Virus record (IMG/VR): IMGVR_UViG_3300009448_000011
Coordinates: 41,688-105,687 of that record
Source: a virus
Direction: 5' to 3' (one strand)
Length of the DNA stretch: 64,000 nt
Positions within the stretch are counted from its first letter, which is position 1, and the number at the start of each line of letters is the position of its first letter. Below, in pieces: positions 13,503 to 42,714 of the stretch. The notes under the pieces are model-generated. The model did not search any database and was not told where the DNA came from. It saw only the letters and a program-made list of their open reading frames with translations. Position numbers and translations under genes: made by a program.

Positions 13503-13892
13503 TCAGACATATTGTTTAAAAACAGAGGAATTTACTTCAAACAAATCAATAAAAGAAGTTTGTAAGACAACTAAATTAGCAATAGGAAAAAGAGGGTCAA
13601 GAGTAAGAGGTTGTGTAGATAGCAAAGAGAGAGACAAAGAAGTAGATTGTTTAGGGGCAACAACTTGACAAGAATCGACAATAGAACAAAGAGGTAAAAG
13701 AGGTAAAAGAGTATATAACAAAGTAATAGGGGATTCACTATAAAGAAGAACGCCTAAATCTAAAGTAGTAATTAAATTTGGAGATAAAGTAAGAGAAAAA
13801 GGAGAATAGACTTTATAGCCAGTAGGCAGACAAAATTCTAACTGACTATTATGGCTAGAAATTGTTTTAGTAAAAATTATTTTATTTATCAT
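13503..13892 (-). CDS. Degenerate trimeric dUTPase-like protein (start moved to 13892)
   Basis: LSPNLITTLDLGV, IVDS and PIANLVV resemble the dUTPase fold; the moved start removes the overlap with the HNH gene. Confidence 0.45.
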   Translation of the reverse strand: MINKIIFTKTISSHNSQLEFCLPTGYKVYSPFSLTLSPNLITTLDLGVLLYSESPITLLYTLLPLLPLCSIVDSCQVVAPKQSTSLSLSLLSTQPLTLDPLFPIANLVVLQTSFIDLFEVNSSVFKQYV

Positions 13893-13905
13893 AGTTGTAA
13901 AAGAA

Positions 13906-14508
13906 TCACAAAAATTTAAGAGACATATTAAAAATAAGTTTGGATTGTTGAAAAGGAAGATTAAGCAACAATTCTTTAAACAAATCGGCCCCAAAGTTTT
14001 GACTAGTGGCCTTAATAGATCTGATGAGAAGTTCACAAAAGTTCCCAACGCCAAACAAATTAACGCGATCAATATCAAATTTAACTTCTGCGTTATGGTA
14101 GTAGGCACTAGTAGAACAGCAAACAGAAGTAATATCAGCGATAACTTTGTTATTTGTGGGGGTAGTATACCAAAGATTGGAAATATGATTATCAGAAGGA
14201 TTGTGATTTAAGTGATGAACTTCCACAGAACCTTTCAAAATCTTATGACCAAAATAGAGTTTTTTCCAACCTTTCCAGACATATAGAACTACTTGATGCA
14301 TGCCCACAATTTGTTTTTTCTTGTTTGAGGCATGTAGTTTAAAGAAACAAGCATTTTTCAACAATTTAAACAAGGCTGGATTTTGGGTTTGAGTTAAAAA
14401 CTTATAGCCATTTTTGTTAACAAAAAACCTAGCAGAAGGCAACAAAGTTTTAATTTTCTCTAATTTAACTTTGAGACTTTTTATACTTTGATTGTTAAAT
14501 TGTTCCAT
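13906..14508 (-). CDS. HNH endonuclease (copy 1)
   Basis: MHQVV...EVHHLNHNPSDNHISNL. Confidence 0.85.
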   Translation of the reverse strand: MEQFNNQSIKSLKVKLEKIKTLLPSARFFVNKNGYKFLTQTQNPALFKLLKNACFFKLHASNKKKQIVGMHQVVLYVWKGWKKLYFGHKILKGSVEVHHLNHNPSDNHISNLWYTTPTNNKVIADITSVCCSTSAYYHNAEVKFDIDRVNLFGVGNFCELLIRSIKATSQNFGADLFKELLLNLPFQQSKLIFNMSLKFL

Positions 14509-16147: not shown

Positions 16148-16732
16148 ATGAATTTAGAAACTTGTCAAAACTTAAGCTTGATAATAGAAAAAGACCAAAC
16201 AATTGAAGTAATTGAAATTTGGGCAAAAGTATTATATATAAGAAGAAGCAAAGGAAGAAATTCATTTTATTCGAAGAAAGGAATAACAAAAGAAACAGAA
16301 GGAATATTTTGTAATAACTTAAAAGTTTCAGAAAATTATAAAAGCCTTTTTAAAAAATACCACCCCGATTTAAACAAAGGAAAAGAAAGTTATGTTGACA
16401 TTTCAAAAAACATTAATAGATGGAAAAACTTATTACTTGAGAGTGGACAAAGAGAGTTTGATCAACAATTATATACAGAGCTTATTGAGTTTTGTGGACC
16501 ACTCACATCCATTTTCACTATTGGAACCAGAGCAAGTTTTATCGCAAAACAAACGTGCGGATCTATCAACATCCCTCAATTTAGTTCTGAACAGGAATTT
16601 GTTGAGTGGAAAGCAGCGCCAAAGCAAGTTGCTTCCAGGCAAGCGTTCCTTGATAGCCAACTTACTAGAGCTCAAATCATCAAAAAGTACGGTAAATCCT
16701 ACTATGATTATGAAAGAGATCTTCCTTTTTAA
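16148..16732 (+). CDS. Cassette ORF-A copy 1 (IEIW domain, partial J-domain, PF tail)
   Basis: MNLETCQNL aligns with the other copies; YKSLFKKYHPDLNKG; ends ERDLPF. Confidence 0.75.
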   Translation: MNLETCQNLSLIIEKDQTIEVIEIWAKVLYIRRSKGRNSFYSKKGITKETEGIFCNNLKVSENYKSLFKKYHPDLNKGKESYVDISKNINRWKNLLLESGQREFDQQLYTELIEFCGPLTSIFTIGTRASFIAKQTCGSINIPQFSSEQEFVEWKAAPKQVASRQAFLDSQLTRAQIIKKYGKSYYDYERDLPF

Positions 16733-17138
16733 TCCTGACCAGGACACTATAATACGTCCTTACGGATTAGAAAAAAATCAAATGTATAGTAATTATATGC
16801 CAACGGGCAAAGAAAGCAAAAATTATTTAAGGAGTTACATTAATAAAGCAGAATCTTTAGGGATCAAAGTCAAAGCTTTCAATTTTAACATTTGCGGTCC
16901 TGTTGTCACACAAGAAGCTATTGAATTCGCCAATTACATGAATATTGCAATTAAAGAATTAAATGGAGTGAAAATACAAATCAATGTATTCACTTTGGAA
17001 CAATTAATCAAAGAATTAATGACAAATATAAATGGAAACAAATGGTTCATCACTTCGCAAGTTCCAAGTATATGCTGGGGAAAAGATCAGGTACAATATT
17101 TAATTTCAGAAAAAAAAGCTATATTAACAGAAAGTTAA
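16392..17138 (+). CDS. Cassette ORF-B copy 1, PD-(D/E)XK endonuclease (free-standing)
   Basis: E...EPEQ..KRADL...LLELK; homologous to the three other copies. Confidence 0.7.
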   Translation: MLTFQKTLIDGKTYYLRVDKESLINNYIQSLLSFVDHSHPFSLLEPEQVLSQNKRADLSTSLNLVLNRNLLSGKQRQSKLLPGKRSLIANLLELKSSKSTVNPTMIMKEIFLFNPDQDTIIRPYGLEKNQMYSNYMPTGKESKNYLRSYINKAESLGIKVKAFNFNICGPVVTQEAIEFANYMNIAIKELNGVKIQINVFTLEQLIKELMTNINGNKWFITSQVPSICWGKDQVQYLISEKKAILTES

Positions 17139-17751: not shown

Positions 17752-19306
17752 TTACCTAAAATAGCAGAATGCCCCCATCAGAACGGTACTCCGTTTGGTG
17801 GCGGGATGAATGCGAGTGAGGCGACGATTGCCTGTCCTCCTTCCGAGATCTACCGATTGTCGGGATTGTCGGACAGGCATAAGGAGACGAACAAATTCAT
17901 TGCTTATTCAATGTTTTATCTGAGTTTTTCTGGATAAAATTATGCTATCATAGTTTCATGATAGTTAGAGAAGCCAAGCTAAAATACGGTACAGCAGAGC
18001 AATATTCTGCCATTGATAAAGCCATCCGAACAGCACAGTTCATTCGGAACAAAGCCGTTCGCTATTGGATGGACAATCAAGGTACGAGTAAAGCCGATCT
18101 GTACAGTATCTGCAAAGACTTGGCTAAAGAGTTTGACTTTGCTAAAAAGCTTAACTCCGCTGCTCGTCAGGCTAGTGCTGAACGTGCTTGGGTTGCTATC
18201 TCTAGCTTCTACACCCGATGCAAAAAGCGGCTCACTCCAGTTGGGTCTCCCAACCATGGAAGTAAGACAAAACAAGGCGTAGGCAAGAAAGGTTTTCCAA
18301 AGTTTAAGAAACATTGTCGTTCTGTTGAGTATAAGGTTTCAGGATGGAAACTATCGAAAGATTGCAAATCGATCGCATTCACTGATGGTTTTGAGATTGG
18401 AACATTATCGATATTTTGCAACAATGAAACTCAAGAAGACTTGCATAGGCTGAAAATTAATCGTGTGCGGATCGTGCGGAGAGCAGACGGGTATTATGCC
18501 CAATTCTGTTTTGATGCAGATCGTAAAGAGCAAGGGGAATATTCAGGCAATGTTGTCGGATTGGATTTAGGGTTGAAGTTTTTCACCAAAGACCAAAACG
18601 ATAATGCTGTAATATATCCACAGTTCTTGAGAAAGGCCCAGATGCAACTCAAGAAAACTCAACGTCGATTAAGCAAGAAATTTGTGAAGGGTGCCAAACC
18701 CCAATCAAACAACTACCACAAGGCGCAAAAACAACTAGGAAGAATTCATCTCAAAATTCAACGCCAGCGAAAAGATTGGGCGATAAAAGCCGCCCGAAAC
18801 GTAGTGATATCTAACGATGTCGTGGTGTATGAAAATTTGAAGATTGCGAACATGGTCAAAAATCATCATTTGGCTAAGTCAATTTCCGATGCTGGTTGGT
18901 ATCAATACACTCAATGGCTGGACTACTATGGCAAGATTTGGGATAAAGCAGTTGTGGCAGTATCGCCAAACTATACGTCTCAAGATTGCTCTAATTGCGG
19001 TCATCGAGTGAAAAAGTCTCTTAGTACCAGAACGCACTCATGCCCCAACTGCAAAATTGAAATTTGTCGCGATACGAATGCGGCTTTGAATATCTTGCAC
19101 AAGGGATTGAACATTCTTGGTGTTGAGTGGGACAAAAACAGTACTTCTGGGCAAGAAGGATCTGCCTCTGAGAATGAGGGAAAGCGCGGGGAGAGATGTA
19201 CCTCTACAGTCGATGAGTAATTAAAGACTGCAAGTAATTCTCTGTGAACCGCGAATAAGAATCCCCCGCTATATCGGTACTTCGATTAGCGGCGGGAGTA
19301 TGTCAA
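17752..19306 (+). mobile_element. IS200/IS605-family tnpB-only element (IS1341-like)
   Basis: Preceded by TTGAT and ends in TCAA; related subterminal hairpins at about 17772-17805 and 19263-19296; GC visibly higher than the flanks. Confidence 0.85.
17958..19220 (+). CDS. tnpB: RNA-guided endonuclease TnpB
   Basis: RuvC motifs GLDLGL, VVYENL and RDTNAA; zinc finger CSNCG..CPNC; GFPKFKK. Confidence 0.93.
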   Translation: MIVREAKLKYGTAEQYSAIDKAIRTAQFIRNKAVRYWMDNQGTSKADLYSICKDLAKEFDFAKKLNSAARQASAERAWVAISSFYTRCKKRLTPVGSPNHGSKTKQGVGKKGFPKFKKHCRSVEYKVSGWKLSKDCKSIAFTDGFEIGTLSIFCNNETQEDLHRLKINRVRIVRRADGYYAQFCFDADRKEQGEYSGNVVGLDLGLKFFTKDQNDNAVIYPQFLRKAQMQLKKTQRRLSKKFVKGAKPQSNNYHKAQKQLGRIHLKIQRQRKDWAIKAARNVVISNDVVVYENLKIANMVKNHHLAKSISDAGWYQYTQWLDYYGKIWDKAVVAVSPNYTSQDCSNCGHRVKKSLSTRTHSCPNCKIEICRDTNAALNILHKGLNILGVEWDKNSTSGQEGSASENEGKRGERCTSTVDE

Positions 19307-19349
19307 AAAAAGTCAATGAAAAAAGTAAAAAAATTAATAGTTAAAAAAA

Positions 19350-19772
19350 TTAATAGTTAAAAATATCTATAGTTGTATTATTGTTAGTTCGTTTAAAGAT
19401 ATAACTATTATTTTGATAGAGGGTGTATTCTTTTAATTGAATACCAGGAGTGATCAAGTCATAATCAAAAGCAACAATAGCATAGCCAGTGCCATCATTA
19501 ATAGTCCAGGTTATATAGAACTTACTTTTCAAATATTGATCATAGCTAGTATCCATGTCGTAGTAGATACCGTAGGGGGTAGTATTTTCCAGGTAAATTT
19601 GGCTAGAAGAAGTAGCACAATAATTCGATTCTGTCAAACCCAACCACATATTATCGGGAGAACAAGTATTTTGAGAATTTGGCTCGGTTAATTGAAGTTC
19701 TGCAGAGGCAGAAGAACCGCTGATCAAAATACTTAAAATAACTACAATGCCGATTTTCAAATTATTAAACAT
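19350..19772 (-). CDS. Secreted hypothetical protein
   Basis: N-terminal signal-peptide-like segment. Confidence 0.55.
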   Translation of the reverse strand: MFNNLKIGIVVILSILISGSSASAELQLTEPNSQNTCSPDNMWLGLTESNYCATSSSQIYLENTTPYGIYYDMDTSYDQYLKSKFYITWTINDGTGYAIVAFDYDLITPGIQLKEYTLYQNNSYIFKRTNNNTTIDIFNY

Positions 19773-19900
19773 TATTTTTTTTATAGTAAATAGTGAATAT
19801 TAAATAAATTACATATTTTCAATTAAAGCAGCAAAATGTCCTCCTTCGGACTAGTATTCCAGTTAAAGGAGGGTAAGGAAGTAATGTTAACAATTTTTTT

Positions 19901-20503
19901 TCATTTAGCGGCCCAACTAGTACCCAATTTACATTCTGCTTTAGAAGGAAAATCAGGCACTAATTTATGTAATAATTCATCCATTGCTTTTTTCATTCCT
20001 AATTCTTGTGCAGCAGCATATTCATAAGAAATATCTTGAAATTTATATTCAGGAATATAAACTTCCCCATCTTTTCTTACATTTACTACTTCACCTTGTC
20101 CAGGGATATAAGTAATACATTCATCATGAACTAAGCCTACGATATAGCCTGGAGAAGAATGTTGTTTATACTTAGTATTAAGCTGAGTAAAAAACTGATC
20201 GATATAATGTGCGGCGCGTTTTGTCATAATACTAGAAAGGCCTTGTATAATGGTATTACAACCTTTACGCATAGTAGCGCCATCATTTTCTATTCCGTGA
20301 GCATTACCTTCGCCAACGAAATAGCGTCTATTTGTTATAGGACATTGTACCCATTTTTGATATCTAGCCAAAGAACTAGTATTATCAATATAGACTTGCA
20401 ATTCTGGAAATAAATTAAAATAGTTTTTAAGAAGTTGTTCAGCAACCTTAATATCTATTTGAAGAGCGGTAGAAATTCTATTAGCACTTCCACCATAAAT
20501 TAC
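19901..20503 (-). CDS. polA: PolA polymerase subunit, exon 3
   Basis: VIYGG, NTIIQG and motif C VHDE; the exon begins after the intron's terminal G at 20504. Confidence 0.9.
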   Translation of the reverse strand, partial: VIYGGSANRISTALQIDIKVAEQLLKNYFNLFPELQVYIDNTSSLARYQKWVQCPITNRRYFVGEGNAHGIENDGATMRKGCNTIIQGLSSIMTKRAAHYIDQFFTQLNTKYKQHSSPGYIVGLVHDECITYIPGQGEVVNVRKDGEVYIPEYKFQDISYEYAAAQELGMKKAMDELLHKLVPDFPSKAECKLGTSWAAK

Positions 20504-20556
20504 CTTAAACCCTAAATTTTCATCTAGGTTTGGACTATACCTTTTAATGTAATTAT

Positions 20557-20586
20557 TTGACATACATTAAAACACCGTGTTATAAT
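20557..20586 (+). promoter_or_regulatory. Sigma70-type promoter of cassette copy 2
   Basis: TTGACA-18 nt-TATAAT with extended -10 TG. Confidence 0.8.
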
Positions 20587-20613
20587 TAGTATAACAAAGA
20601 AACATTTTAGATA

Positions 20614-21192
20614 ATGGACATACAAACAGCGGCGAATTTACAAGAATTAATAGAACAAGATCCTTTAATAGAATTAATCGAAATATGGGATAAAGTTTTA
20701 TACATAAGAAAAGTAAAAGGCCGAGGAAGGTTTCATACTAAAAAAAATATTACTTTGTTAAAAAGTGGAATATACATCAATACAAAATATATACTCCAAG
20801 AATACAAAAGACTTCAAAAAAAATATCACCCTGATTTAAACAAAGGAAAAAAAAATTATGTTGAAATTTCAAAAAGCATTAATCAATGGAAAGACTTATT
20901 ATTTGAATGTGACGAAAGAGAACTCAATAGAACAGTATATCAGTTACTTATTACAACATGTGGACCGCTCACATCCATTTTCAGCATTGGAAAATCAGCA
21001 GACTTTATTTGGGGGCAAGAGGCCGGATTTCTCCACATCCCTAGATTTAATTCTGAACAGGAATTCAAGGAATGGAAAATTCCCTTTAGGAATTGGGCGG
21101 AAAAACTCGATGATTGCCGATTGCCTAGAAGTAAAAGGAAGTTCTCAGATGTTGAGCACTACGGAGTTAATGAAAGAGATCTTCCTTTTTGA
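20614..21192 (+). CDS. Cassette ORF-A copy 2
   Basis: IEIWDKVLYIRK, YKRLQKKYHPDLNKG; ends ERDLPF. Confidence 0.75.
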   Translation: MDIQTAANLQELIEQDPLIELIEIWDKVLYIRKVKGRGRFHTKKNITLLKSGIYINTKYILQEYKRLQKKYHPDLNKGKKNYVEISKSINQWKDLLFECDERELNRTVYQLLITTCGPLTSIFSIGKSADFIWGQEAGFLHIPRFNSEQEFKEWKIPFRNWAEKLDDCRLPRSKRKFSDVEHYGVNERDLPF

Positions 21193-21589
21193 TGCAGCAG
21201 AAACTATTGTTCCTACTTATGATGTTTCTATGTCTGATTTTCAATCTCAATATTTTCCATTGGGGAAAGAAAGCAAGAATTATTTCAGAAGTTATGTGCA
21301 GGAAGCACTTAATAGAGGCATCAAAGTGAAATCATTTACTTTTTGGTTTGCGGGCCCTCTAGTGTCTATTGAAGCCATCAAATTTTCTATTTATTGGAAT
21401 CGCGTGATCAAACAAATAGGTGGAATTCAAGTAGAAATCAAAGTTTTGTCTTTGGAACAATTAATTAATTACATCATTTCCAATATTCCAACAAAAAAAT
21501 GGTATGTATTAAATCAACATCCTTCTGTTTGTATGAGTAGAGCGCAGGTTGAAGCTCTAATAGAAGCTCAACTAGCCATTTTAGTATAA
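20858..21589 (+). CDS. Cassette ORF-B copy 2, PD-(D/E)XK endonuclease
   Basis: LENQ..KRPDFS...CLEVK. Confidence 0.75.
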   Translation: MLKFQKALINGKTYYLNVTKENSIEQYISYLLQHVDRSHPFSALENQQTLFGGKRPDFSTSLDLILNRNSRNGKFPLGIGRKNSMIADCLEVKGSSQMLSTTELMKEIFLFDAAETIVPTYDVSMSDFQSQYFPLGKESKNYFRSYVQEALNRGIKVKSFTFWFAGPLVSIEAIKFSIYWNRVIKQIGGIQVEIKVLSLEQLINYIISNIPTKKWYVLNQHPSVCMSRAQVEALIEAQLAILV

Positions 21590-21616
21590 TCTTTTAATAT
21601 CTAATTATCTTTAAGT

Positions 21617-21649
21617 CGCCTTGTACATTAATGTATTTAGGCGTTTTTT
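21617..21649 (+). terminator. Intrinsic terminator of cassette copy 2
   Basis: cgcct...aggcg hairpin followed by T6. Confidence 0.7.
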
Positions 21650-21787
21650 ATTATGTATTCTTAAAAGTCTCTGAACCATTTTATAAACTTTCATTTATAG
21701 CTGGCTGCTGATTGACATATAGTATTTTTTAAACTACTTAGTGTTCCAGCAATTGAGTGTTTTTTACTTCACCATAATTTACAATTT

Positions 21788-22051
21788 AGTGAAGCCGCAG
21801 ACTTTACCACGGTCTCTTCTTGTCCATCCATTCATATCTTTTTTAGCTTCTTTAATAACATTCCATTTAGGAACAGTAGCTAATTCAGGGTACATTCCAA
21901 TAGCCGAAACTACATGAAGATCCCCGTCAGGATTAGGATATGTTTCTTTTGTATGTGGATTAATAAGAAAGGGATTATGCACTTCGGCATCGAAAAACGC
22001 ATTAATCATTCTCTCTATTTTTGCTATACAAGCAATAGCTCTTACTTCTTG
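21788..22051 (-). CDS. polA: PolA polymerase subunit, exon 2
   Basis: QEVRAIA...GDLH...RDRGKVCGFT. Confidence 0.9.
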
Positions 22052-22271
22052 CAATATAGTTTTATTCTATACTGGCACTACTCTTCACCATCTCTATTAA
22101 GTACAGGTGTTTTACGTCAGTGCTCTACTCTTGCCCAATTAATATAATAGAATAATAGTTCTAATTAATTTGCTAGATCGGGATTAGTTTACTATCACTT
22201 TCCCCGAATTGGTAAAATATTTTTTATACTATTTCTAATATAAACGACCCTTTTTTATTGTATTTATTTGT

Positions 22272-22300
22272 TTGACATTCAGCCATATAAGAGATACAAT
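22272..22300 (+). promoter_or_regulatory. Sigma70-type promoter of cassette copy 3
   Basis: TTGACA-17 nt-TACAAT. Confidence 0.8.
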
Positions 22301-22327
22301 AAAAAAAAGACAAAAAACAAATAAGGT

Positions 22328-22900
22328 ATGGATGCTCAAACTTGTAGAAACCTACAAACATTAATTGATAAAGATAATAATATTGAACTCATAGAAATAT
22401 GGGCCAAGGTACTTTATCTAAGAATGAAAAAAGGAAAAAACAAGTTTTGCAGTAAAAAAGGAATAACTAATTTAAGCTCAGGAATTTATTTAAACTTAAC
22501 TAACTTTAAAAATGAATACACAAAATTGCAACGAAAATATCACCCAGACAAAAATGCAAAACATTTTGAAATTTCAAAAGGTATTAATCAATGGAAAGCA
22601 TTTATATTTGAATGTGACAAACGAGAACTTAATAGAACAGAACTTAATACATTACTTGAATCATGTCCCCCCAACACATCCTTATTCTCTCTTAGAGAAC
22701 CAGCAAGTTATTTACAACAACAAGAGACCGGACTTTTCAACCACCTTGACGACATTGCCAGGCACTATTGGGCCACTGTTACGCCTAAGCAAAGAGCTGA
22801 GGCAGAAGCTAGGGAAGAAGAATGGCTTGCTCGTCGATGTGGTAGAAACAAAGATGGAAGTAAATACGTCGACCCTTATGAAGGAACTTGTCCCTTTTAA
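22328..22900 (+). CDS. Cassette ORF-A copy 3
   Basis: IEIWAKVLYLRMKKG, LQRKYHPDKN; ends YEGTCPF. Confidence 0.75.
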   Translation: MDAQTCRNLQTLIDKDNNIELIEIWAKVLYLRMKKGKNKFCSKKGITNLSSGIYLNLTNFKNEYTKLQRKYHPDKNAKHFEISKGINQWKAFIFECDKRELNRTELNTLLESCPPNTSLFSLREPASYLQQQETGLFNHLDDIARHYWATVTPKQRAEAEAREEEWLARRCGRNKDGSKYVDPYEGTCPF

Positions 22901-23300
22901 AGAAGATGCACAACAATTTGTTGATTCATCTTTTAGAAAGGAACAATTTACTTTTAATGCAGAACGCGTTGTCAATTATAAATGTTACATAAGCAATTAT
23001 GTGAAAGCTGTTCAACAAAAAAAAGGTAAAGTAAAACAAATTACTTTTGCTTTTGTAGCTCCAAAAATAACAGTAGATGCATATGAATTGGCGTGGATTT
23101 TAACACATAGTCCAATTTACAATAATATTGGTGGCGTTAAAATCATAGTAGAATTATATACATTAGAAGCTTTTATCGAAAAACTGATTAATATAATCCC
23201 AGCCAATAAATGGTTCATTAAAAGTTCAATTCCTTTTAATTGTGTAAATGGGAGAGATGTAGATCTTCTAGTTAAAGAAAATAGAGCTATTATTATTTAA
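22512..23300 (+). CDS. Cassette ORF-B copy 3, PD-(D/E)XK endonuclease
   Basis: LENQ..KRPDFS...VVETK. Confidence 0.75.
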   Translation: MNTQNCNENITQTKMQNILKFQKVLINGKHLYLNVTNENLIEQNLIHYLNHVPPTHPYSLLENQQVIYNNKRPDFSTTLTTLPGTIGPLLRLSKELRQKLGKKNGLLVDVVETKMEVNTSTLMKELVPFKEDAQQFVDSSFRKEQFTFNAERVVNYKCYISNYVKAVQQKKGKVKQITFAFVAPKITVDAYELAWILTHSPIYNNIGGVKIIVELYTLEAFIEKLINIIPANKWFIKSSIPFNCVNGRDVDLLVKENRAIII

Positions 23301-23326
23301 TTTATTTATTTTTTATCTTTAGTAAT

Positions 23327-23356
23327 AAACTCAGTATATAGGTGTATACTGAGTTT
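23327..23356 (+). terminator. Probable terminator hairpin of cassette copy 3
   Basis: aaactcagtata/tatactgagttt inverted repeat followed by T-rich sequence. Confidence 0.6.
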
Positions 23357-23373
23357 CAATTTATATTTAGTTA

Positions 23374-23460
23374 AGCCGAGTAATCACTAATACCCACACA
23401 CATACCTTTAGGCGCCGCACCTAAAGCTTTTCTTACCGTTGTTGTAATTTCATATGACAT
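23374..23460 (-). CDS. polA: PolA polymerase subunit, exon 1 (29 codons, missing from the ORF track)
   Basis: MSYEITTTVRKALGAAPKGMCVGISDYSA; the spliced product is 29+88+200 = 317 aa. Confidence 0.85.
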
Positions 23461-23522
23461 ATTTAATTTTAAATTTGGTTTAATTAATGAAAAAGAATAA
23501 ATAGCAATAGAATTAAAATATT

Positions 23523-23876
23523 TTAAACAATATTATGTTTCAACAAAACAAGAATGATTTGTTTAATAATATCGCCATGACAATCATTAGGTTTGCACCA
23601 ACAAGCAAGTTTAAAATCTACCCCTTTTTTTTCTAATTGAGCTAAGCGAATCAATTCATCATAAACAGAGCCTTTTTTCAAAGAATACATTTGAAGAATC
23701 CAGGCCTTATAGAGCTGTAGACTTTCTGCAAGAGTTCTATTATGTCTAACTGCATAAGGATTATTTAAAGGGCTAGCTTTTAAATTGTAATAAGCATTTT
23801 TACGGCCAATGTAGATAATATCTTCGCCAACAAATCCGTCTTTTTTCCCATTGATAATGTGCATAGAGTTGTTCAA
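23523..23876 (-). CDS. DUF4326-like protein
   Basis: IYIGR..SPLNNPY...LACWCKPNDCHGDII. Confidence 0.8.
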   Translation of the reverse strand: MNNSMHIINGKKDGFVGEDIIYIGRKNAYYNLKASPLNNPYAVRHNRTLAESLQLYKAWILQMYSLKKGSVYDELIRLAQLEKKGVDFKLACWCKPNDCHGDIIKQIILVLLKHNIV

Positions 23877-23883
23877 TTAAATA

Positions 23884-25173
23884 TCAAAATTGATGTTGAT
23901 CAATAGAAATAACAGCAAGAGTAGAAGAAACTTGTTGTAAATTAGCAGAGCCACTAGAACTCATGCGACCTGTACTAGAACCTATAGAAGAAAAACCGAC
24001 ATGTACGTTATTAGTAGTACTATTAATAATAGAGTTATACTTCAAACATTCAGACCAAAGTTTACTATATTTTTTATAACGTAACAAATTTTTAATTAAA
24101 TTAATATGACTATATTTAGAAATCAAATAATTCTCATCAAATAAAGGTTCTTTTTCTTCATCAAGGGCTTCTTGTTTTAGTAGATCAAGATATAATTTTA
24201 TTTCATCTGCTTGCAAGCTAGATAAAGAAGCGCCGCCTAATTTAGTCAAATAATCATTAATAAAAGAAACTAAGCCCTTATTATTATTAAGTAAAGTTTT
24301 GACTTTATCAGGAATAACATACTTAAGTTCCCAATGACCTTGAGCATTAAGATCAGTATCAGTATAGATAGTAAAACCTAATTCATGTACTAAATAAGAT
24401 CTATGAAGATTAGTTTGTTCTTCGGCATAAGAAGTAATCTTAGCTAATAGAGAAGTATCGAGACACATGCCGTAATATTCCATTTTTGCACAAATAACAG
24501 TAGCTTGCTGATCTGATTCGTATGCAAATTGTTGATGAAGAAGATCAAGTTGAGTTTTAAATAAATAATAACCTTCAATTAATATAGAATTAATAGAAGA
24601 AAGTTTAGGAGCGCCAACATCTAAAGCGGCATAACCTAATTGGCTAGTAGTTAAAGGTCGTTCACCCCAAGAACTAGTAGCTTCACTTTTATCGAGATGG
24701 ATATCAAAATAATCCCTTGCTAAATCTTTAAGACCATGGCCTCTAAATATAGAAGCTTTCATTCCTGTAGTAATGGCCAAACTTTTCATTAAAGTCAAAG
24801 AACAAACAGTATTAACGGGCCAGGATTTAAACTCGTTATAAAATTGTTTTAAATCAAATTGACTATAGTGAAGTATTTTTAATATATTTTCATTAAGCAA
24901 TACTTTTGTATTAAATAAAGATTTAGCAGAAGAACTCAATAATATAAAATCTAAAATATAAGGAATAGAATGATTTATACTATTTAATTGAACTAAAGAT
25001 ATTTTAGAACTATGAGGATCCAAAGCACTAGGATTTACTTTAGATAAATCAATCATAGTTTCAGTATCCAGTGCAATTTCCTTACTTTCTACACAAAAAT
25101 CAATTATTGCCTCTATATCTTTATCTTCTGTTACATAATAAATATCAATTTCCGCTGTTTCTATTAATTTCAT
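23884..25173 (-). CDS. polA: PolA N-terminal subunit (3'-5' exonuclease and thumb)
   Basis: ALDTET, FDLK, YAALDV, TGRMSS..NLQQ; the ORF stops before motif A. Confidence 0.88.
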   Translation of the reverse strand: MKLIETAEIDIYYVTEDKDIEAIIDFCVESKEIALDTETMIDLSKVNPSALDPHSSKISLVQLNSINHSIPYILDFILLSSSAKSLFNTKVLLNENILKILHYSQFDLKQFYNEFKSWPVNTVCSLTLMKSLAITTGMKASIFRGHGLKDLARDYFDIHLDKSEATSSWGERPLTTSQLGYAALDVGAPKLSSINSILIEGYYLFKTQLDLLHQQFAYESDQQATVICAKMEYYGMCLDTSLLAKITSYAEEQTNLHRSYLVHELGFTIYTDTDLNAQGHWELKYVIPDKVKTLLNNNKGLVSFINDYLTKLGGASLSSLQADEIKLYLDLLKQEALDEEKEPLFDENYLISKYSHINLIKNLLRYKKYSKLWSECLKYNSIINSTTNNVHVGFSSIGSSTGRMSSSGSANLQQVSSTLAVISIDQHQF

Positions 25174-38715: not shown

Positions 38716-39507
38716 TTAAACAGATATTAAATCACTAAAAGCTTGCATATGTTCTTTGCGCATTGCTTTATATGCCTCAGACTTACCAATTTTGTAGGGT
38801 AGTTTTTTATTATCTATTTTTTGTGCTTTACTAAATAGAGTAATCACACTTGTCACTAAAATTTCTTTACGAGGTAAATTATCTTCAATACTTCCTAATA
38901 CATTAAATACATAACATGCCGCTATAAATTCTTCTTCTGTTTTACAATACGACGGTAATGAATAACTTAATCCATATAAACCAGTTATTTTAGTAGGAAG
39001 AATATTTTTAATTAAGCGATCATCTTGGAGGACACCTAGACGAATATATTCAGACATAGGGGCAAGGCTAGCTAATTCTTCAATAACAAAAAAGAATTCA
39101 TGAGCAGTAGCGGCGCCTAAAAGACCTGGTAAAATAATTTTTAATTGTTGTTCATCAGTAATTTTCTCCATAATATTGGAACATTTTTCCCATGAACGGC
39201 TAGAAGGATTAATTTTATCATCATTATCTGCGACTGATTTAAAACCTTCGTCAAGAAATTCAGGACGAGCTCTTAAAAAAGCTTTAATAGAAGGAATAAT
39301 AGGGCGGCCGTTTTCTGCGCGATGGGCTTCCCATTTTAACCAAGCATTTACAGAAGTCATTACGTCAAAATGAATAAAACGATCTGAGATAGCACTAGAT
39401 AACTCATAGGCTATAGCACCATCTTCTACTCTATTTCCTGCTGCAATAATCATTACATTATCAGGAACTTTATATTTATCAATTTTTCTATCTAATATTA
39501 ATTCGTA
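38716..39507 (-). CDS. MoxR-like AAA+ ATPase, exon 2
   Basis: YELILDR, IAAGNR, DRF, SSRSWE. Confidence 0.88.
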   Translation of the reverse strand, partial: YELILDRKIDKYKVPDNVMIIAAGNRVEDGAIAYELSSAISDRFIHFDVMTSVNAWLKWEAHRAENGRPIIPSIKAFLRARPEFLDEGFKSVADNDDKINPSSRSWEKCSNIMEKITDEQQLKIILPGLLGAATAHEFFFVIEELASLAPMSEYIRLGVLQDDRLIKNILPTKITGLYGLSYSLPSYCKTEEEFIAACYVFNVLGSIEDNLPRKEILVTSVITLFSKAQKIDNKKLPYKIGKSEAYKAMRKEHMQAFSDLISV

Positions 39508-39752
39508 CATTAATATACCTTTAATTTTCATTAAAGAACGGAATACATTTTAATCTTTACTATATTTATATAGTATTAAGACTTGGACACTCTAGGTAAA
39601 ATTATAGTCTGTTTAACTTAAGACATCATTTACTACTCTCTACATTATTATTAAACATTACTTTAATAATTAACACGGGATTACCTTATAGTTTCCTACT
39701 TAGGTTTCCCCGTTAGCCTAATCTCTATTTGTTCTTTTTTGATTAAACCCTA

Positions 39753-39820: not shown

Positions 39821-40411
39821 GTGGACATACAAAGTTGTAAAAATCTTCAAGCATTAATTGATAAAGACAATAATATTGAACTCATAGAAATATGGGCTAA
39901 TATATTGTATTTAAGAATGCGAAAAGGAAAAAACAAATTTTGTAGTAAAAAAAGAATAACTAATTTAAAAGAAGGTGTTTATTTAAATATCTATACTTTT
40001 TCTAAAAATGAATACAAACAATTACAGCAAAAATATCACCCTGACACCAGCTCAAAATATTTACACATTTCAAAAAGTCTTAATCAATGGAAAGATTTAT
40101 TATCTAGATGTGACTACAGAGTCCAAAATAGAAGCATATATCTTGACATTGCTGCAACATATTCCAACAACCCATCCATATTCTCTATTGAAAAATCAAT
40201 TAGAATATTCAGTATGGCAAAAGAGGCCCGACTTTTCGACGGACTACTCGAGGATACCGCAGAGTGGGCAGAAGGATGTGATGAAGCCTGGCTCGCTCAA
40301 CAAAGAGCTGAGAGCCAATCTAGGTGGAAAGAATGGTCTAACTGGCAACGTGGTCGAGATAAAGAAGGAAATAAAATTAGAGACACTTATGACGGAACTC
40401 TTCCTTTTTAA
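39821..40411 (+). CDS. Cassette ORF-A copy 4
   Basis: IEIWANILYLRMRKG, LQQKYHPDTS; ends YDGTLPF. Confidence 0.75.
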   Translation: MDIQSCKNLQALIDKDNNIELIEIWANILYLRMRKGKNKFCSKKRITNLKEGVYLNIYTFSKNEYKQLQQKYHPDTSSKYLHISKSLNQWKDLLSRCDYRVQNRSIYLDIAATYSNNPSIFSIEKSIRIFSMAKEARLFDGLLEDTAEWAEGCDEAWLAQQRAESQSRWKEWSNWQRGRDKEGNKIRDTYDGTLPF

Positions 40412-40814
40412 TACAGAAGAAGAAGTATTTCTTGCTCCTCTCGGTAAAACTCACGATCAATTTCTAAAAGAAAATCCTATAGAAACTTCTTCATCTAAAA
40501 TGTATATACTTGCCACTAAACTTCATGCACAAAAATTAGGATTTAAACTAAAAAGATTAAATATGACTTTTGTGGCGCCTCTTGTTTCTAACAAAGCATT
40601 ACAATATGAACAATATCATAACAAAGCTATTAAAAATATAGGAGGAATTGCAGTAGATTTAAAAGTATTTACCTTAGAACAATTCATTAATGAATTATTT
40701 ACTTTAATTCCCGACAGTAAATGGTACATAAAAGATAATCATATTCCTTTTATCGCCTTGTCAAAATCTAAAGTAGAAATATTACAAGAAAATAATTTAG
40801 CCGTTATAATGTAA
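40008..40814 (+). CDS. Cassette ORF-B copy 4, PD-(D/E)XK endonuclease
   Basis: LKNQ..KRPDFS...VVEIK. Confidence 0.75.
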   Translation: MNTNNYSKNITLTPAQNIYTFQKVLINGKIYYLDVTTESKIEAYILTLLQHIPTTHPYSLLKNQLEYSVWQKRPDFSTDYSRIPQSGQKDVMKPGSLNKELRANLGGKNGLTGNVVEIKKEIKLETLMTELFLFNTEEEVFLAPLGKTHDQFLKENPIETSSSKMYILATKLHAQKLGFKLKRLNMTFVAPLVSNKALQYEQYHNKAIKNIGGIAVDLKVFTLEQFINELFTLIPDSKWYIKDNHIPFIALSKSKVEILQENNLAVIM

Positions 40815-40832
40815 TCATATTCATTTTTATTT

Positions 40833-40876
40833 AAATCTCTCTTATTGTGTTATTGCTTTAAGAGAGATTTTTATTT
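40833..40876 (+). terminator. Terminator hairpin of cassette copy 4
   Basis: aaatctctctta/taagagagattt followed by a T-rich tail. Confidence 0.65.
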
Positions 40877-40939
40877 GGTACGCAATAGTTTGCCCAGTTT
40901 TACTTATATATTTCTATATAAGGTGCCTACGAATATTTA

Positions 40940-41305
40940 AGCACTTGCTTGTAAACGCGGTTCAGCCGCACTTAATTCATCTAGAAAAATAATACAACCT
41001 TCTTTACCCCAACTAGCAATCATTTCTTCTGTTGGTAAAAATTCAGGTAAATAATAAATAGTTTTTTTACTTTCTTGATGTAGATAAGGAAGTCCTGTTA
41101 AATCAGTACTATCCATTCTAGTAAGTCTTAAATCAATTAGCCCCCAATTTAATTCTGTAGCTATTTGTCTTACAATATCAGATTTACCACAACCAGGTTG
41201 TCCATGTATATATACAGCATTTTTACGTAAGTCTGTATCTTTTGCCATTGTTAAAATACAATTTTTAATTAAATCAGGCGTAGTGGGAATAGTATTAATT
41301 GTCAT
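40940..41305 (-). CDS. MoxR-like AAA+ ATPase, exon 1
   Basis: Walker A GQPGCGKS, DLTGLP, Walker B IFLDEL; the spliced product is 385 aa. Confidence 0.88.
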
Positions 41306-41544: not shown

Positions 41545-42714
41545 TCATAATTTTTTTTCAGTTTTATACAAAATTTTCACAATAGGAAATCTCAAACTTC
41601 CTTCAGGGGTTTTCCCAAAAAATTTAACGGTAACAATTCCCCCAATATATTGTTCTTTTTCTTCTAGAACTTTTCTACAAAAATCCCAAGAACCCGCCAT
41701 ATTGGGGTAGACTAGTATGTCATTAACAGAAATCATAATTTTCGCAGCCATACCCGCATTATTGCCGTCGCCTTCAATGATATCCAAAATAGTAAATTCG
41801 GCATCTTGAAATTGTTTAACTTTAAGCAAATCTTTTGTTCTTGTATTTTGTTGATATTTAGCATTTATTTTTCTCAAGATTGCGCCTTCATAGCCTTGTT
41901 GTACAAATTTATTATGCATTCTAGTAACTTCTGTTAAATCTTTAACATAAGAACCCTCAAGTAAAACAACAGAAGAAGGAAATTCTAAAGATAAATTATT
42001 TAATAAAAGAGCTCGTTCTTTATATATAGAATGATTAATAAGATCATAAACAAAAAAAGAAATACTTTTTCTAATTAATTGTTGTTCAGTATTATCTTGT
42101 TTTAATTCTCTTCTAATTGTGCCTGAGATAACATCAAAACCCAGAGTGTGATTATATAATTCTCCATCTAAAATTACATGAGGATATGTATTAAAAAATT
42201 GCTGCATAGGTTGTGTAATATGAGGTGCCCCTAAAATCAAAGCACCGTTTCTACTATATGCGCCATCTTTAGAAAGAATCATTCTAATGCCATCAAGTTT
42301 TCTTTGAATTATTATTCCGTCTCTAAACTCAGTAGTAGAAGGAATATTATTTTTAATTTTAGAGTTTTTAGACTCTGGATTAAAAGTTTCAGAATAATAA
42401 GTCGCGGCCAACATAGGTTTTATAAATGTAGGTTTATATAAATCATTTTTAGAGATAACATAAGAACCTTTAGAGGTTTTATGGTTATATTTAGCTTTTA
42501 TTTCTTTTGAAGCTTGTTGAAATGAATTAAGAGCATTTTTTTTACCTGTGTTTGTAGCAATAGCAGTAGTCCATGCACTAATAGTGTATTGTCCTAATTC
42601 GAGACCACTAACTGTTCTATAACGTTCTCCTTCTTGTTCAACAAACCATTCTAATATTTTTCCTGAAAGATTCAGTTTGTATAAAACAGGATGCACTAAG
42701 TTAACAATATTCAT
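41545..42714 (-). CDS. ATP-dependent DNA ligase
   Basis: KPMLA, KLDGIR, LDGELY, EGAILR, LLKVK, LRFP. Confidence 0.93.
   Translation of the reverse strand: MNIVNLVHPVLYKLNLSGKILEWFVEQEGERYRTVSGLELGQYTISAWTTAIATNTGKKNALNSFQQASKEIKAKYNHKTSKGSYVISKNDLYKPTFIKPMLAATYYSETFNPESKNSKIKNNIPSTTEFRDGIIIQRKLDGIRMILSKDGAYSRNGALILGAPHITQPMQQFFNTYPHVILDGELYNHTLGFDVISGTIRRELKQDNTEQQLIRKSISFFVYDLINHSIYKERALLLNNLSLEFPSSVVLLEGSYVKDLTEVTRMHNKFVQQGYEGAILRKINAKYQQNTRTKDLLKVKQFQDAEFTILDIIEGDGNNAGMAAKIMISVNDILVYPNMAGSWDFCRKVLEEKEQYIGGIVTVKFFGKTPEGSLRFPIVKILYKTEKKL

Follow-up and report, generated by a model that had tools for sequence, protein, structure and literature searches.

In phage lambda and its relatives the spanin genes Rz and Rz1 share a strand, with Rz1 in the +1 frame of Rz. 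Homing endonuclease genes are either intron-borne or free-standing, and one of the enzymes they encode, I-Ssp6803I, is a PD-(D/E)xK nuclease. J-domain proteins, also known as DnaJ/Hsp40 proteins, have a viral example in the large T antigen of polyomavirus. Programmed +1 frameshifting at shifty stops is known from prfB (CUU_UGA) and from Listeria phage PSA (CCC_UGA), and +1 slippage is favored by UUU before a pyrimidine and by a stop codon in the A site. The overprinted and overlapping genes of small viruses, e.g. D/E and A/B/K of phiX174, have been reviewed (PMC8227390) and tests for their detection are available (PMC6188560). The DNA analyzed here is a stretch of 64,000 nucleotides, referred to as the window, which covers positions 41,688 to 105,687 of the IMG/VR virus record IMGVR_UViG_3300009448_000011. 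It harbors a unit of ~1 kb in four diverged copies, each composed of two open reading frames (ORFs), ORF-A and ORF-B, that overlap out of frame, and the segment under study is the overlap in copy 2. This segment is best explained as genuine dual coding, in which a small homing-type cassette with its own promoter specifies two separate proteins through two genes that partly overlap, a reading to which a probability of about 0.72 is assigned.

The record containing the window is linear, 105.7 kb long, ~62% complete and has a GC content of ~29%; its best DNA match is a groundwater metagenome, and no RNA run with the sequence was listed. All four copies are located on the plus strand amid minus-strand genes (Table 1). 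An earlier note on this DNA had reported overlaps of 341, 335, 389 and 404 nucleotides (nt) with a constant +1 offset, a nuclease active site within the overlap, a common position of the ORF-A stop and a conserved sequence near the overlap start, and these observations were borne out. In 4/4 copies ORF-B lies in the +1 frame of ORF-A, while the third frame contains dozens of stops. The alignment places K-R-(P/A)-D ... E-x-K inside the overlap and TCC(T/C)TTTT(A/G)A at the ORF-A stop of every copy, and ATTTCAAAA near the overlap start is invariant in all four. A sequencing frameshift error as the cause of the offset was ruled out, as four paralogs have the same offset and it recurs in independent assemblies (ENA, Logan and JGI). 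For ORF-A of copy 1 a longer reading from ATG 16109 is possible, but this ATG lies inside the promoter.

The arrangement resembles Rz/Rz1 in that it occurs in a double-stranded DNA (dsDNA) phage, uses two frames of the same strand and is conserved in relatives. It differs from Rz/Rz1 in that the overlap is partial (335-404 nt), combines a J-domain tail with a catalytic core and belongs to a mobile nuclease cassette instead of a lysis system, and in that a partnership of the two products is only putative. With the overlaps of small viruses it shares a long out-of-frame overlap, one conserved and ordered frame combined with a variable and probably disordered one, and significant openness tests. 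Unlike these, it is located in a dsDNA phage of more than 100 kb with no evident pressure on genome size.

The protein encoded by ORF-B of copy 2 was modeled from its own Met with AlphaFold2 (AF2), which gave one globular fold with a predicted local distance difference test (pLDDT) value of 89.7 and a predicted template modeling score of 0.86. In a VIA-align comparison with the PDB most of the best ~30 matches were PD-(D/E)xK nucleases with middling Z-scores of 5-7.8 over model residues 4-222, among them AF1548 (7.8), NucS (7.6), the FokI cleavage domain (7.5), Can2 (7.1) and also BspD6I. The span of this fold indicates that the nuclease needs both the overlap and the part downstream of it. 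All motif residues of copy 2 (E21, P56-D57 and E91-x-K93) lie inside the overlap, and E21, D57, E93 and K95 in the numbering of copy 1 are invariant in the four copies. Based on the model, ORF-B is thus predicted to encode a single-domain PD-(D/E)xK nuclease that folds confidently. Foldseek comparison with the PDB yielded only E-values of 0.03 or worse, which are not significant, and no match was found for ORF-B in Pfam or PHROG, nor any sequence match in the PDB at E <=10. The 50 best fold matches did not include I-Ssp6803I.

The ORF-A protein of copy 2 consists of an N-terminal alpha/beta part, J helix II, an HPD motif (residues 72-74), helix III, helix IV, a tail modeled with low confidence and a D-L-P-F end. 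A profile built from 22 homologs matched 49 PDB chains, nearly all of them J-domain proteins (best E=8e-7), over helix II, HPD, helix III and the following K-R-E-F motif up to the start of helix IV. The profile pairs the stretch ISKGINQWKELLSECEKREF, read in frame A at the overlap start, with helix III of the J-domain in DNAJA1 and other proteins (E-values down to 8e-7). For one homolog, P0025, a precomputed match to the Pfam DnaJ family (PF00226) exists. H72, P73 and D74 are invariant across the 22 homologs, and the helix-loop-helix is modeled at a pLDDT of ~90; helix III residues are nearly invariant in the homolog alignment, and mid-tail positions vary and include insertions and deletions. 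The AF2 model of copy 2 reaches ~90 for residues 1-100 (a helix, four strands, a helix at 60-70, HPD at 72-74 and a helix at 80-98) and ~70-75 for a helix at 106-116, and residues 127-143 and 161-192 stay below 50. Since the overlap begins at ORF-A residue 82, J helices III and IV are dual-coded. The segment of copy 2 therefore carries J helix III/IV, the tail and the tip in frame A, and the N-terminal hairpin, the first helix and the catalytic strands of the nuclease in frame B. ORF-A is like J-domain proteins in its invariant HPD between helices that match J helices II and III; it differs from them in that the alpha/beta N-terminal part replaces helix I and in that the window copies stay under the Pfam cut-off. 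Foldseek comparison of ORF-A with the PDB returned nothing significant, the local match to 5nro_B having a root-mean-square deviation of 2.2 over 43 columns at 40% identity. Protein-atlas searches gave only leads below 0.9, or of ~0.9 for unnamed clusters (DnaJ for ORF-A, MunI/PDDEXK for ORF-B).

Whether the second frame could be open by chance was calculated by dynamic programming over synonymous codons, which holds the protein of the other frame fixed, uses the codon usage of the phage itself and gives the exact probability that no stop occurs. Single-genome tests of the same logic have been published for overlapping genes (PMC6188560). Given the ORF-B protein, the probability of an open frame A is 7e-10, 8e-8, 1e-11 and 1e-10 for copies 1 to 4, and frame A was open in none of 3000 codon permutations. 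In the reverse test, the probability of an open frame B given the ORF-A protein ranges from 7e-5 to 4e-3. Both frames are open far beyond chance. The possibility that the ORF-A tail is open merely through the codon bias of ORF-B is ruled out by the synonymous-codon test (P 1e-8 to 1e-11 per copy). In the overlap the synonymous choice of ORF-B is strongly skewed (mean ln P -1.63, vs -0.89 farther downstream in ORF-B and -1.46 in off-frame controls), and the GC content rises to 0.40-0.43 in the later overlap (20920-21160) vs ~0.29 phage-wide. These compositional marks fit with dual coding.

The constraint is distributed unevenly along the overlap. Over its first ~25 codons the column conservation is ~0.6 in ORF-A (I-S-K...N-Q-W-K) and 0.55-0.68 in ORF-B (F-Q-K...I-N-G-K...Y-L-x-V). 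In the later overlap ORF-B remains at 0.5-0.8 through H-P-F-S and R-P-D, and ORF-A falls to 0.2-0.4, with conservation rising again at the final P-F. At this tip the proline codons (CCT, CCC or CCA) and the stops (TGA or TAA) vary silently in frame A, and the corresponding frame B residues are L, P or H, and D, N or K, respectively. As this variation is silent in ORF-A and alters ORF-B, selection at the tip acts on frame A. The ORF-A protein ends with P-F or P-W in 17 of the 22 homologs and with P-F-L in one more; typical ends are E-R-D-L-P-F, D-G-D-L-P-F and D-G-D-I-P-W, and about half of the homologs show D-(L/I)-P-(F/W). Each frame thus has features that the other does not explain, i.e. the helix III profile match and the tip for ORF-A, and the E/PD/ExK residues and the confident fold for ORF-B. 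Homologs, matches to profiles, structure models and the codon tests accordingly support the overprinting alternative of the earlier note, in which both frames are under selection.

Homologs were compared at the protein level. A profile of the four ORF-A copies identified 22 proteins, the four of the window and 18 from ENA, Logan and JGI assemblies, with 33-54% identity to copy 2. All are 169-210 amino acids (aa) long and extend at least 85 codons beyond HPD, and their size implies that each includes the overlap segment. Frequent stops in this segment, named beforehand as evidence against dual coding, were not seen, as 22/22 proteins run through it. Searching 1.84 billion representative proteins with an ORF-B profile revealed 18 relatives. 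Besides the window copies two of them have lengths of 243-253 aa and keep E/PD/ExK, and these residues are kept in homologs P0003, P0004 and P0011. In place of the ratio of nonsynonymous to synonymous nucleotide substitution rates, pairs of ORF-A and ORF-B homologs were tested for whether they can share one DNA at the +1 offset, which is feasible as the DNA is almost completely determined once both overlapping proteins are given. P0033/P0003 are compatible with one DNA over 91 codons. Five further pairs (P0031/P0009, P0034/P0013, P0025/P0002, P0028/P0010 and P0036/P0014) are compatible over 12-19 codons up to the ORF-A stop, P0032/P0012 over eight codons and P0026/P0008 over six. A single 282-kb ENA contig is the source of five ORF-A and five ORF-B homologs. 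The compatible pairs and the shared contig show the arrangement, as reconstructed from the proteins, to be kept in no fewer than 12 modules, which come from at least four assemblies.

Some relatives deviate from the common layout. In P0034/P0013 (282-kb ENA contig) the ORF-A stop lies a few codons earlier relative to ORF-B, and in P0028/P0010 (Logan, 14-kb contig) it lies ~19 codons earlier, with ORF-B reading F-P-F-N-K where the ExK region is usual. Due to these shifted stops the end point of the overlap is not absolutely fixed. P0011 (318 aa; Logan/ENA, 56-kb contig) is a divergent ORF-B relative with an unrelated N-terminal extension of 61 residues that lacks HPD and with an insertion after the ExK strand, and may represent a variant of the cassette without the ORF-A overlap. 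Two runs of a different study contain relatives with ~90% identity, in which 122 bases of the region that belongs to ORF-B only (within 21193-21316, right after the overlap) are too diverged to align, and the overlap just upstream (20794-21193) is only ~6% different. This difference fits with an extra constraint on the dual-coded part. No match to ORF-A or ORF-B was obtained by tblastn against 50,697 phage records, and related-locus searches of viral, metagenome and genome contig collections returned no relatives.

The promoter of copy 2 matches the sigma-70-type consensus and a terminator-like hairpin follows ORF-B (Table 1); boxes resembling TTGACA/TATAAT are also aligned upstream of the other copies. 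Each copy has, 4-7 codons beyond the point at which frame B opens, an ATG of its own for ORF-B. The context of this start is A-rich and lacks a Shine-Dalgarno sequence, which is typical of this phage, where AGGA, GGAG or GAGG precedes only two of the 26 long genes in the window and starts lie in A/T-rich contexts. The host thus probably initiates translation without a Shine-Dalgarno sequence, and the own ATG in a start context typical of the phage is positive support for independent initiation of ORF-B. No tRNA genes were found in the window. Judging from these sequence features, both proteins would be made. One transcript, running from the sigma-70 promoter to the hairpin terminator, would carry both genes. 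ORF-A would be translated from the first start into an adaptor-like protein with an alpha/beta N-terminus, a J-like HPD hairpin, a weakly conserved, probably flexible tail and a (D/G)-(L/I)-P-(F/W) tip. ORF-B would be translated from the internal ATG in the +1 frame into a one-domain PD-(D/E)xK endonuclease, whose catalytic residues would be encoded in the overlap. The overlap would be tolerable because the demanding nuclease core mostly lies over the undemanding ORF-A tail, of which only openness and the tip would be required. In the first ~25 codons, where both frames are conserved, the DNA would be nearly frozen. The overlap probably arose by loss of an ORF-A stop and an upstream shift of the ORF-B start, by which the genes would now be physically linked. 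Both steps are listed among the routes (a and b) to gene overlap (PMC2268670). The first ~25 codons correspond to two old, recognizable folds, and the origin, unlike that of small-virus overlaps, was likely not de novo birth alone.

Several observations weigh against dual coding with two separate products. Substitutions among the four copies track the codon phase of ORF-B in the overlap (0.41, 0.34 and 0.52 at ORF-B positions 1, 2 and 3), which indicates little sequence constraint on the ORF-A tail beyond openness. The ORF-A motif G-R-x-K-x-G is a shadow of V-E-x-K in ORF-B, so that part of the ORF-A conservation is borrowed. The Pfam DnaJ model scores the window copies at 13-24 bits (E=3e-5 for copy 2), below the gathering score of 27.8. 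A shift-prone U_UUU_URA is present at the ORF-A stop in 9/12 modules, so that some frameshifting may occur there. Furthermore, most remaining ORF-B relatives are annotated as ~140-aa proteins (133-152 aa) with a Met start right at the ORF-A stop. The latter observation, together with the poor conservation and poor modeling of the ORF-A tail, would be expected if only a single frame were translated through the overlap, with ORF-B starting at a Met near the ORF-A stop to give a non-nuclease protein of ~140 aa, or with the ORF-A tail as functionless read-through. This explanation is improbable, since such short calls are the expected output of gene callers if long same-strand overlaps are forbidden. 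In addition, the overlap part of ORF-B is the best conserved part of this ORF (0.5-0.8 column identity) and holds E/PD/ExK, both halves are needed for the fold, and frame A is open in 22 homologs, at a per-copy probability of no more than ~1e-8, and has at its end a conserved tip that the frame of ORF-B leaves unexplained.

The other alternative of the earlier note, a programmed +1 frameshift that fuses the N-terminus and J segment of ORF-A to the nuclease, did not hold up, as shift sites are not conserved, residues of both frames force ATTTCAAAA, ORF-B has its own ATGs, folds would be cut and no fused homolog was found. At the ORF-A stop, a tRNA-Phe in the P site could, in the manner of prfB, slip from UUU to the overlapping UUU with the stop codon in the A site, which would fuse ORF-A to the C-terminal 132 residues of ORF-B beside the separate products. 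CCN TTT TRA is present in 4/4 window copies and in five of eight reconstructed homolog ends, and in most modules the stop occupies the same alignment position. Like known shifty stops, 9/12 modules have a re-pairable UUU_U followed by a stop and an open +1 frame beyond. In the remaining three (CCT TTC TAA, CCT TTC TGA and CCT TGG TGA) the tRNA would be unable to re-pair in the +1 frame, yet P-F or P-W is retained. The site, unlike known ones, is thus not conserved as nucleotides, and no stimulatory element was identified. Moreover, the stop lies elsewhere relative to ORF-B in P0034/P0013 and P0028/P0010, and according to the model the fused portion would be the non-catalytic half of one nuclease fold, which makes the fusion structurally implausible. 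A shift at the stop is therefore regarded as very improbable. A +1 shift or transcriptional slippage near the overlap start, at an A-run or at ATTTCAAAA, would instead join the entire nuclease to the N-terminus and HPD loop of ORF-A, with this fusion as the real enzyme. Copy 2 carries a run of nine A just before the ATG of ORF-B, ATTTCAAAA is invariant in the four copies, and tRNA-Lys could re-pair in the +1 frame on AAA_A/G. However, the A-run is interrupted in copy 1 and has been lost from copies 3 and 4, and ATTTCAAAA was rejected as a slippery site because it is fully set by the conserved I-S-K of frame A and F-Q-K of frame B, which leave only ATTTCAAA(A/G). Such a shift would also lose the conserved J-domain helix III, although ORF-B has an own ATG in every copy and folds alone in AF2, and no in-frame fusion of a J-domain and the nuclease was detected by the ORF-B profile search among the 1.84 billion representative proteins. 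A shift near the overlap start is thus hardly credible.

The setting of the cassette is that of a homing-type element, with ORF-B as the likely homing nuclease. A family-A DNA polymerase gene (polA) lies in pieces on the minus strand (19901-25173), and Pfam DNA_pol_A matches the pieces flanking 20504-21787. Copy 3 is inserted in antisense between the exon-like pieces 23374-23460 and 21788-22051. Joining these gives ...G-I-S-D-Y-S-A|Q-E-V-R-A-I-A, which is motif A with canonical spacing, and joining 21788-22051 to 20503 across copy 2 gives R-R-D-R-G-K-V-C-G-F-T|V-I-Y-G-G-S-A, which is motif B with canonical spacing. As the joins restore motifs A and B, the intervening sequences are probably removed by splicing. 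Rfam detected no intron or other family at the gathering threshold over the window, nor at E <=1 around copies 1-3; the only weak match was RF02844 at 40833-40903, below threshold. Copy 4 lies in antisense between two halves of a minus-strand AAA ATPase gene, which is split exactly at profile position 119 of phrog_1297 (40937-41305 corresponds to positions 14-119 and 38716-39531 to positions 119-332). As in homing endonuclease genes, several diverged copies per phage are located in conserved sites of essential genes, here at the most conserved polA motifs, A and B, and inside the ATPase gene, and encode a PD-(D/E)xK nuclease behind an own promoter. Unlike these genes, the cassette is antisense to its host gene and includes another gene that overlaps the first, and its sequence matches no solved nuclease. 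The cassette, a self-promoted combination of a J-domain protein and a PD-(D/E)xK nuclease inserted in antisense in interrupted genes, is an undescribed family without a Pfam or PHROG entry.

Table 1. Positions of the cassette copies, their signals and the associated polymerase features in the window.
Feature	Position	Strand	Details
Cassette copy 1	16148-17138	+	ORF-A 16148-16732, ORF-B 16392-17138; overlap 341 nt
Cassette copy 2	20614-21589	+	ORF-A 20614-21192 (192 aa), ORF-B 20858-21589 (243 aa); overlap 335 nt
Cassette copy 3	22328-23300	+	ORF-A 22328-22900, ORF-B 22512-23300; overlap 389 nt
Cassette copy 4	39821-40814	+	ORF-A 39821-40411 (GTG start), ORF-B 40008-40814; overlap 404 nt
Dual-coded segment of copy 2	20858-21192	+	335 nt; ORF-B frame is +1 of ORF-A
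End of ORF-A, copy 2	21178-21192	+	GAT CTT CCT TTT TGA, D-L-P-F-stop; frame B reads I-F-L-F-D
Sigma-70-type consensus promoter, copy 2	20557-20586	+	TTGACA, 18-nt spacer, TG, TATAAT; 12/12 hexamer matches, extended -10
Terminator-like hairpin followed by T run, downstream of ORF-B, copy 2	21617-21649	+	-10.4 kcal/mol, z = -3.6; 0/200 shuffles as stable
Intervening sequence in family-A DNA polymerase gene	20504-21787	-	holds cassette copy 2 in antisense
polA pieces	23884-25173; 23374-23460; 21788-22051; 20503 down to 19901	-	23884-25173 exonuclease/N-terminal ORF; 23374-23460 short, exon-like
DUF4326 gene	23523-23876	-	between polA N-terminal ORF and exon-like piece

Other mobile-type and variable sequences occur in the same part of the window. 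A gene of the TnpB/IS605 OrfB type with Cas12f1-like TNB and OrfB_IS605 domains is located on the plus strand (17958-19220) in a patch with a GC content of 0.38. It shows 10-20x the depth of its flanks and many variants in two runs of another study, which indicates a multi-copy element that other genomes in these runs also carry. The 506 bases at 19307-19812, which contain an ORF of 140 aa (19350-19772), are skipped in a 31.7-kb contig of the probable source run and thus represent a presence/absence variant within the sample. An HNH endonuclease gene of mobile type (phrog_28475 and HNH phrogs) on the minus strand (13906-14508) overlaps a GTG-started ORF (13503-14108) by ~200 nt.

With regard to the function of ORF-A, the C-terminal hexapeptide D-D-D-I-P-F of SSB, the protein that binds single-stranded DNA, attaches to numerous proteins of replication and repair (PMC5872125, PMC3632105). 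The ORF-A end resembles this tip, as it reads (D/E)-x-(D/T)-(L/I)-P-(F/W) after a poorly ordered tail (pLDDT <50). It differs from SSB in that ORF-A lacks an OB fold, has fewer acidic residues and shows Trp or Cys/Val variants. An SSB gene of bacterial type was not found on the 105.7-kb record. By analogy, ORF-A may recruit Hsp70/DnaK, as its HPD hairpin suggests, and may dock on SSB-binding repair and replication proteins. A further, rather unlikely idea is that ORF-A serves as a novel type of accessory factor of the homing nuclease. It would act as a J-domain adaptor whose SSB-like tip docks on SSB-binding repair and replication proteins of the host, or competes with SSB, and brings Hsp70/DnaK to the break made by ORF-B, and the overlap would lock nuclease and helper together against recombination. 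Literature searches on J-domains combined with homing endonucleases found nothing relevant.

Large dsDNA phages rarely show long out-of-frame overlaps between two recognizable proteins, and gene callers routinely remove such overlaps. Most database entries of ORF-B are cut to ~140 aa and have thereby lost the catalytic half of the protein. The cassette illustrates how such an overlap persists, with a flexible tail over an enzyme core and a frozen stretch in which two folds share codons. If it is true that ORF-A aids homing via the Hsp70 and SSB interactome, selfish nucleases would thereby exploit host repair in a new manner.

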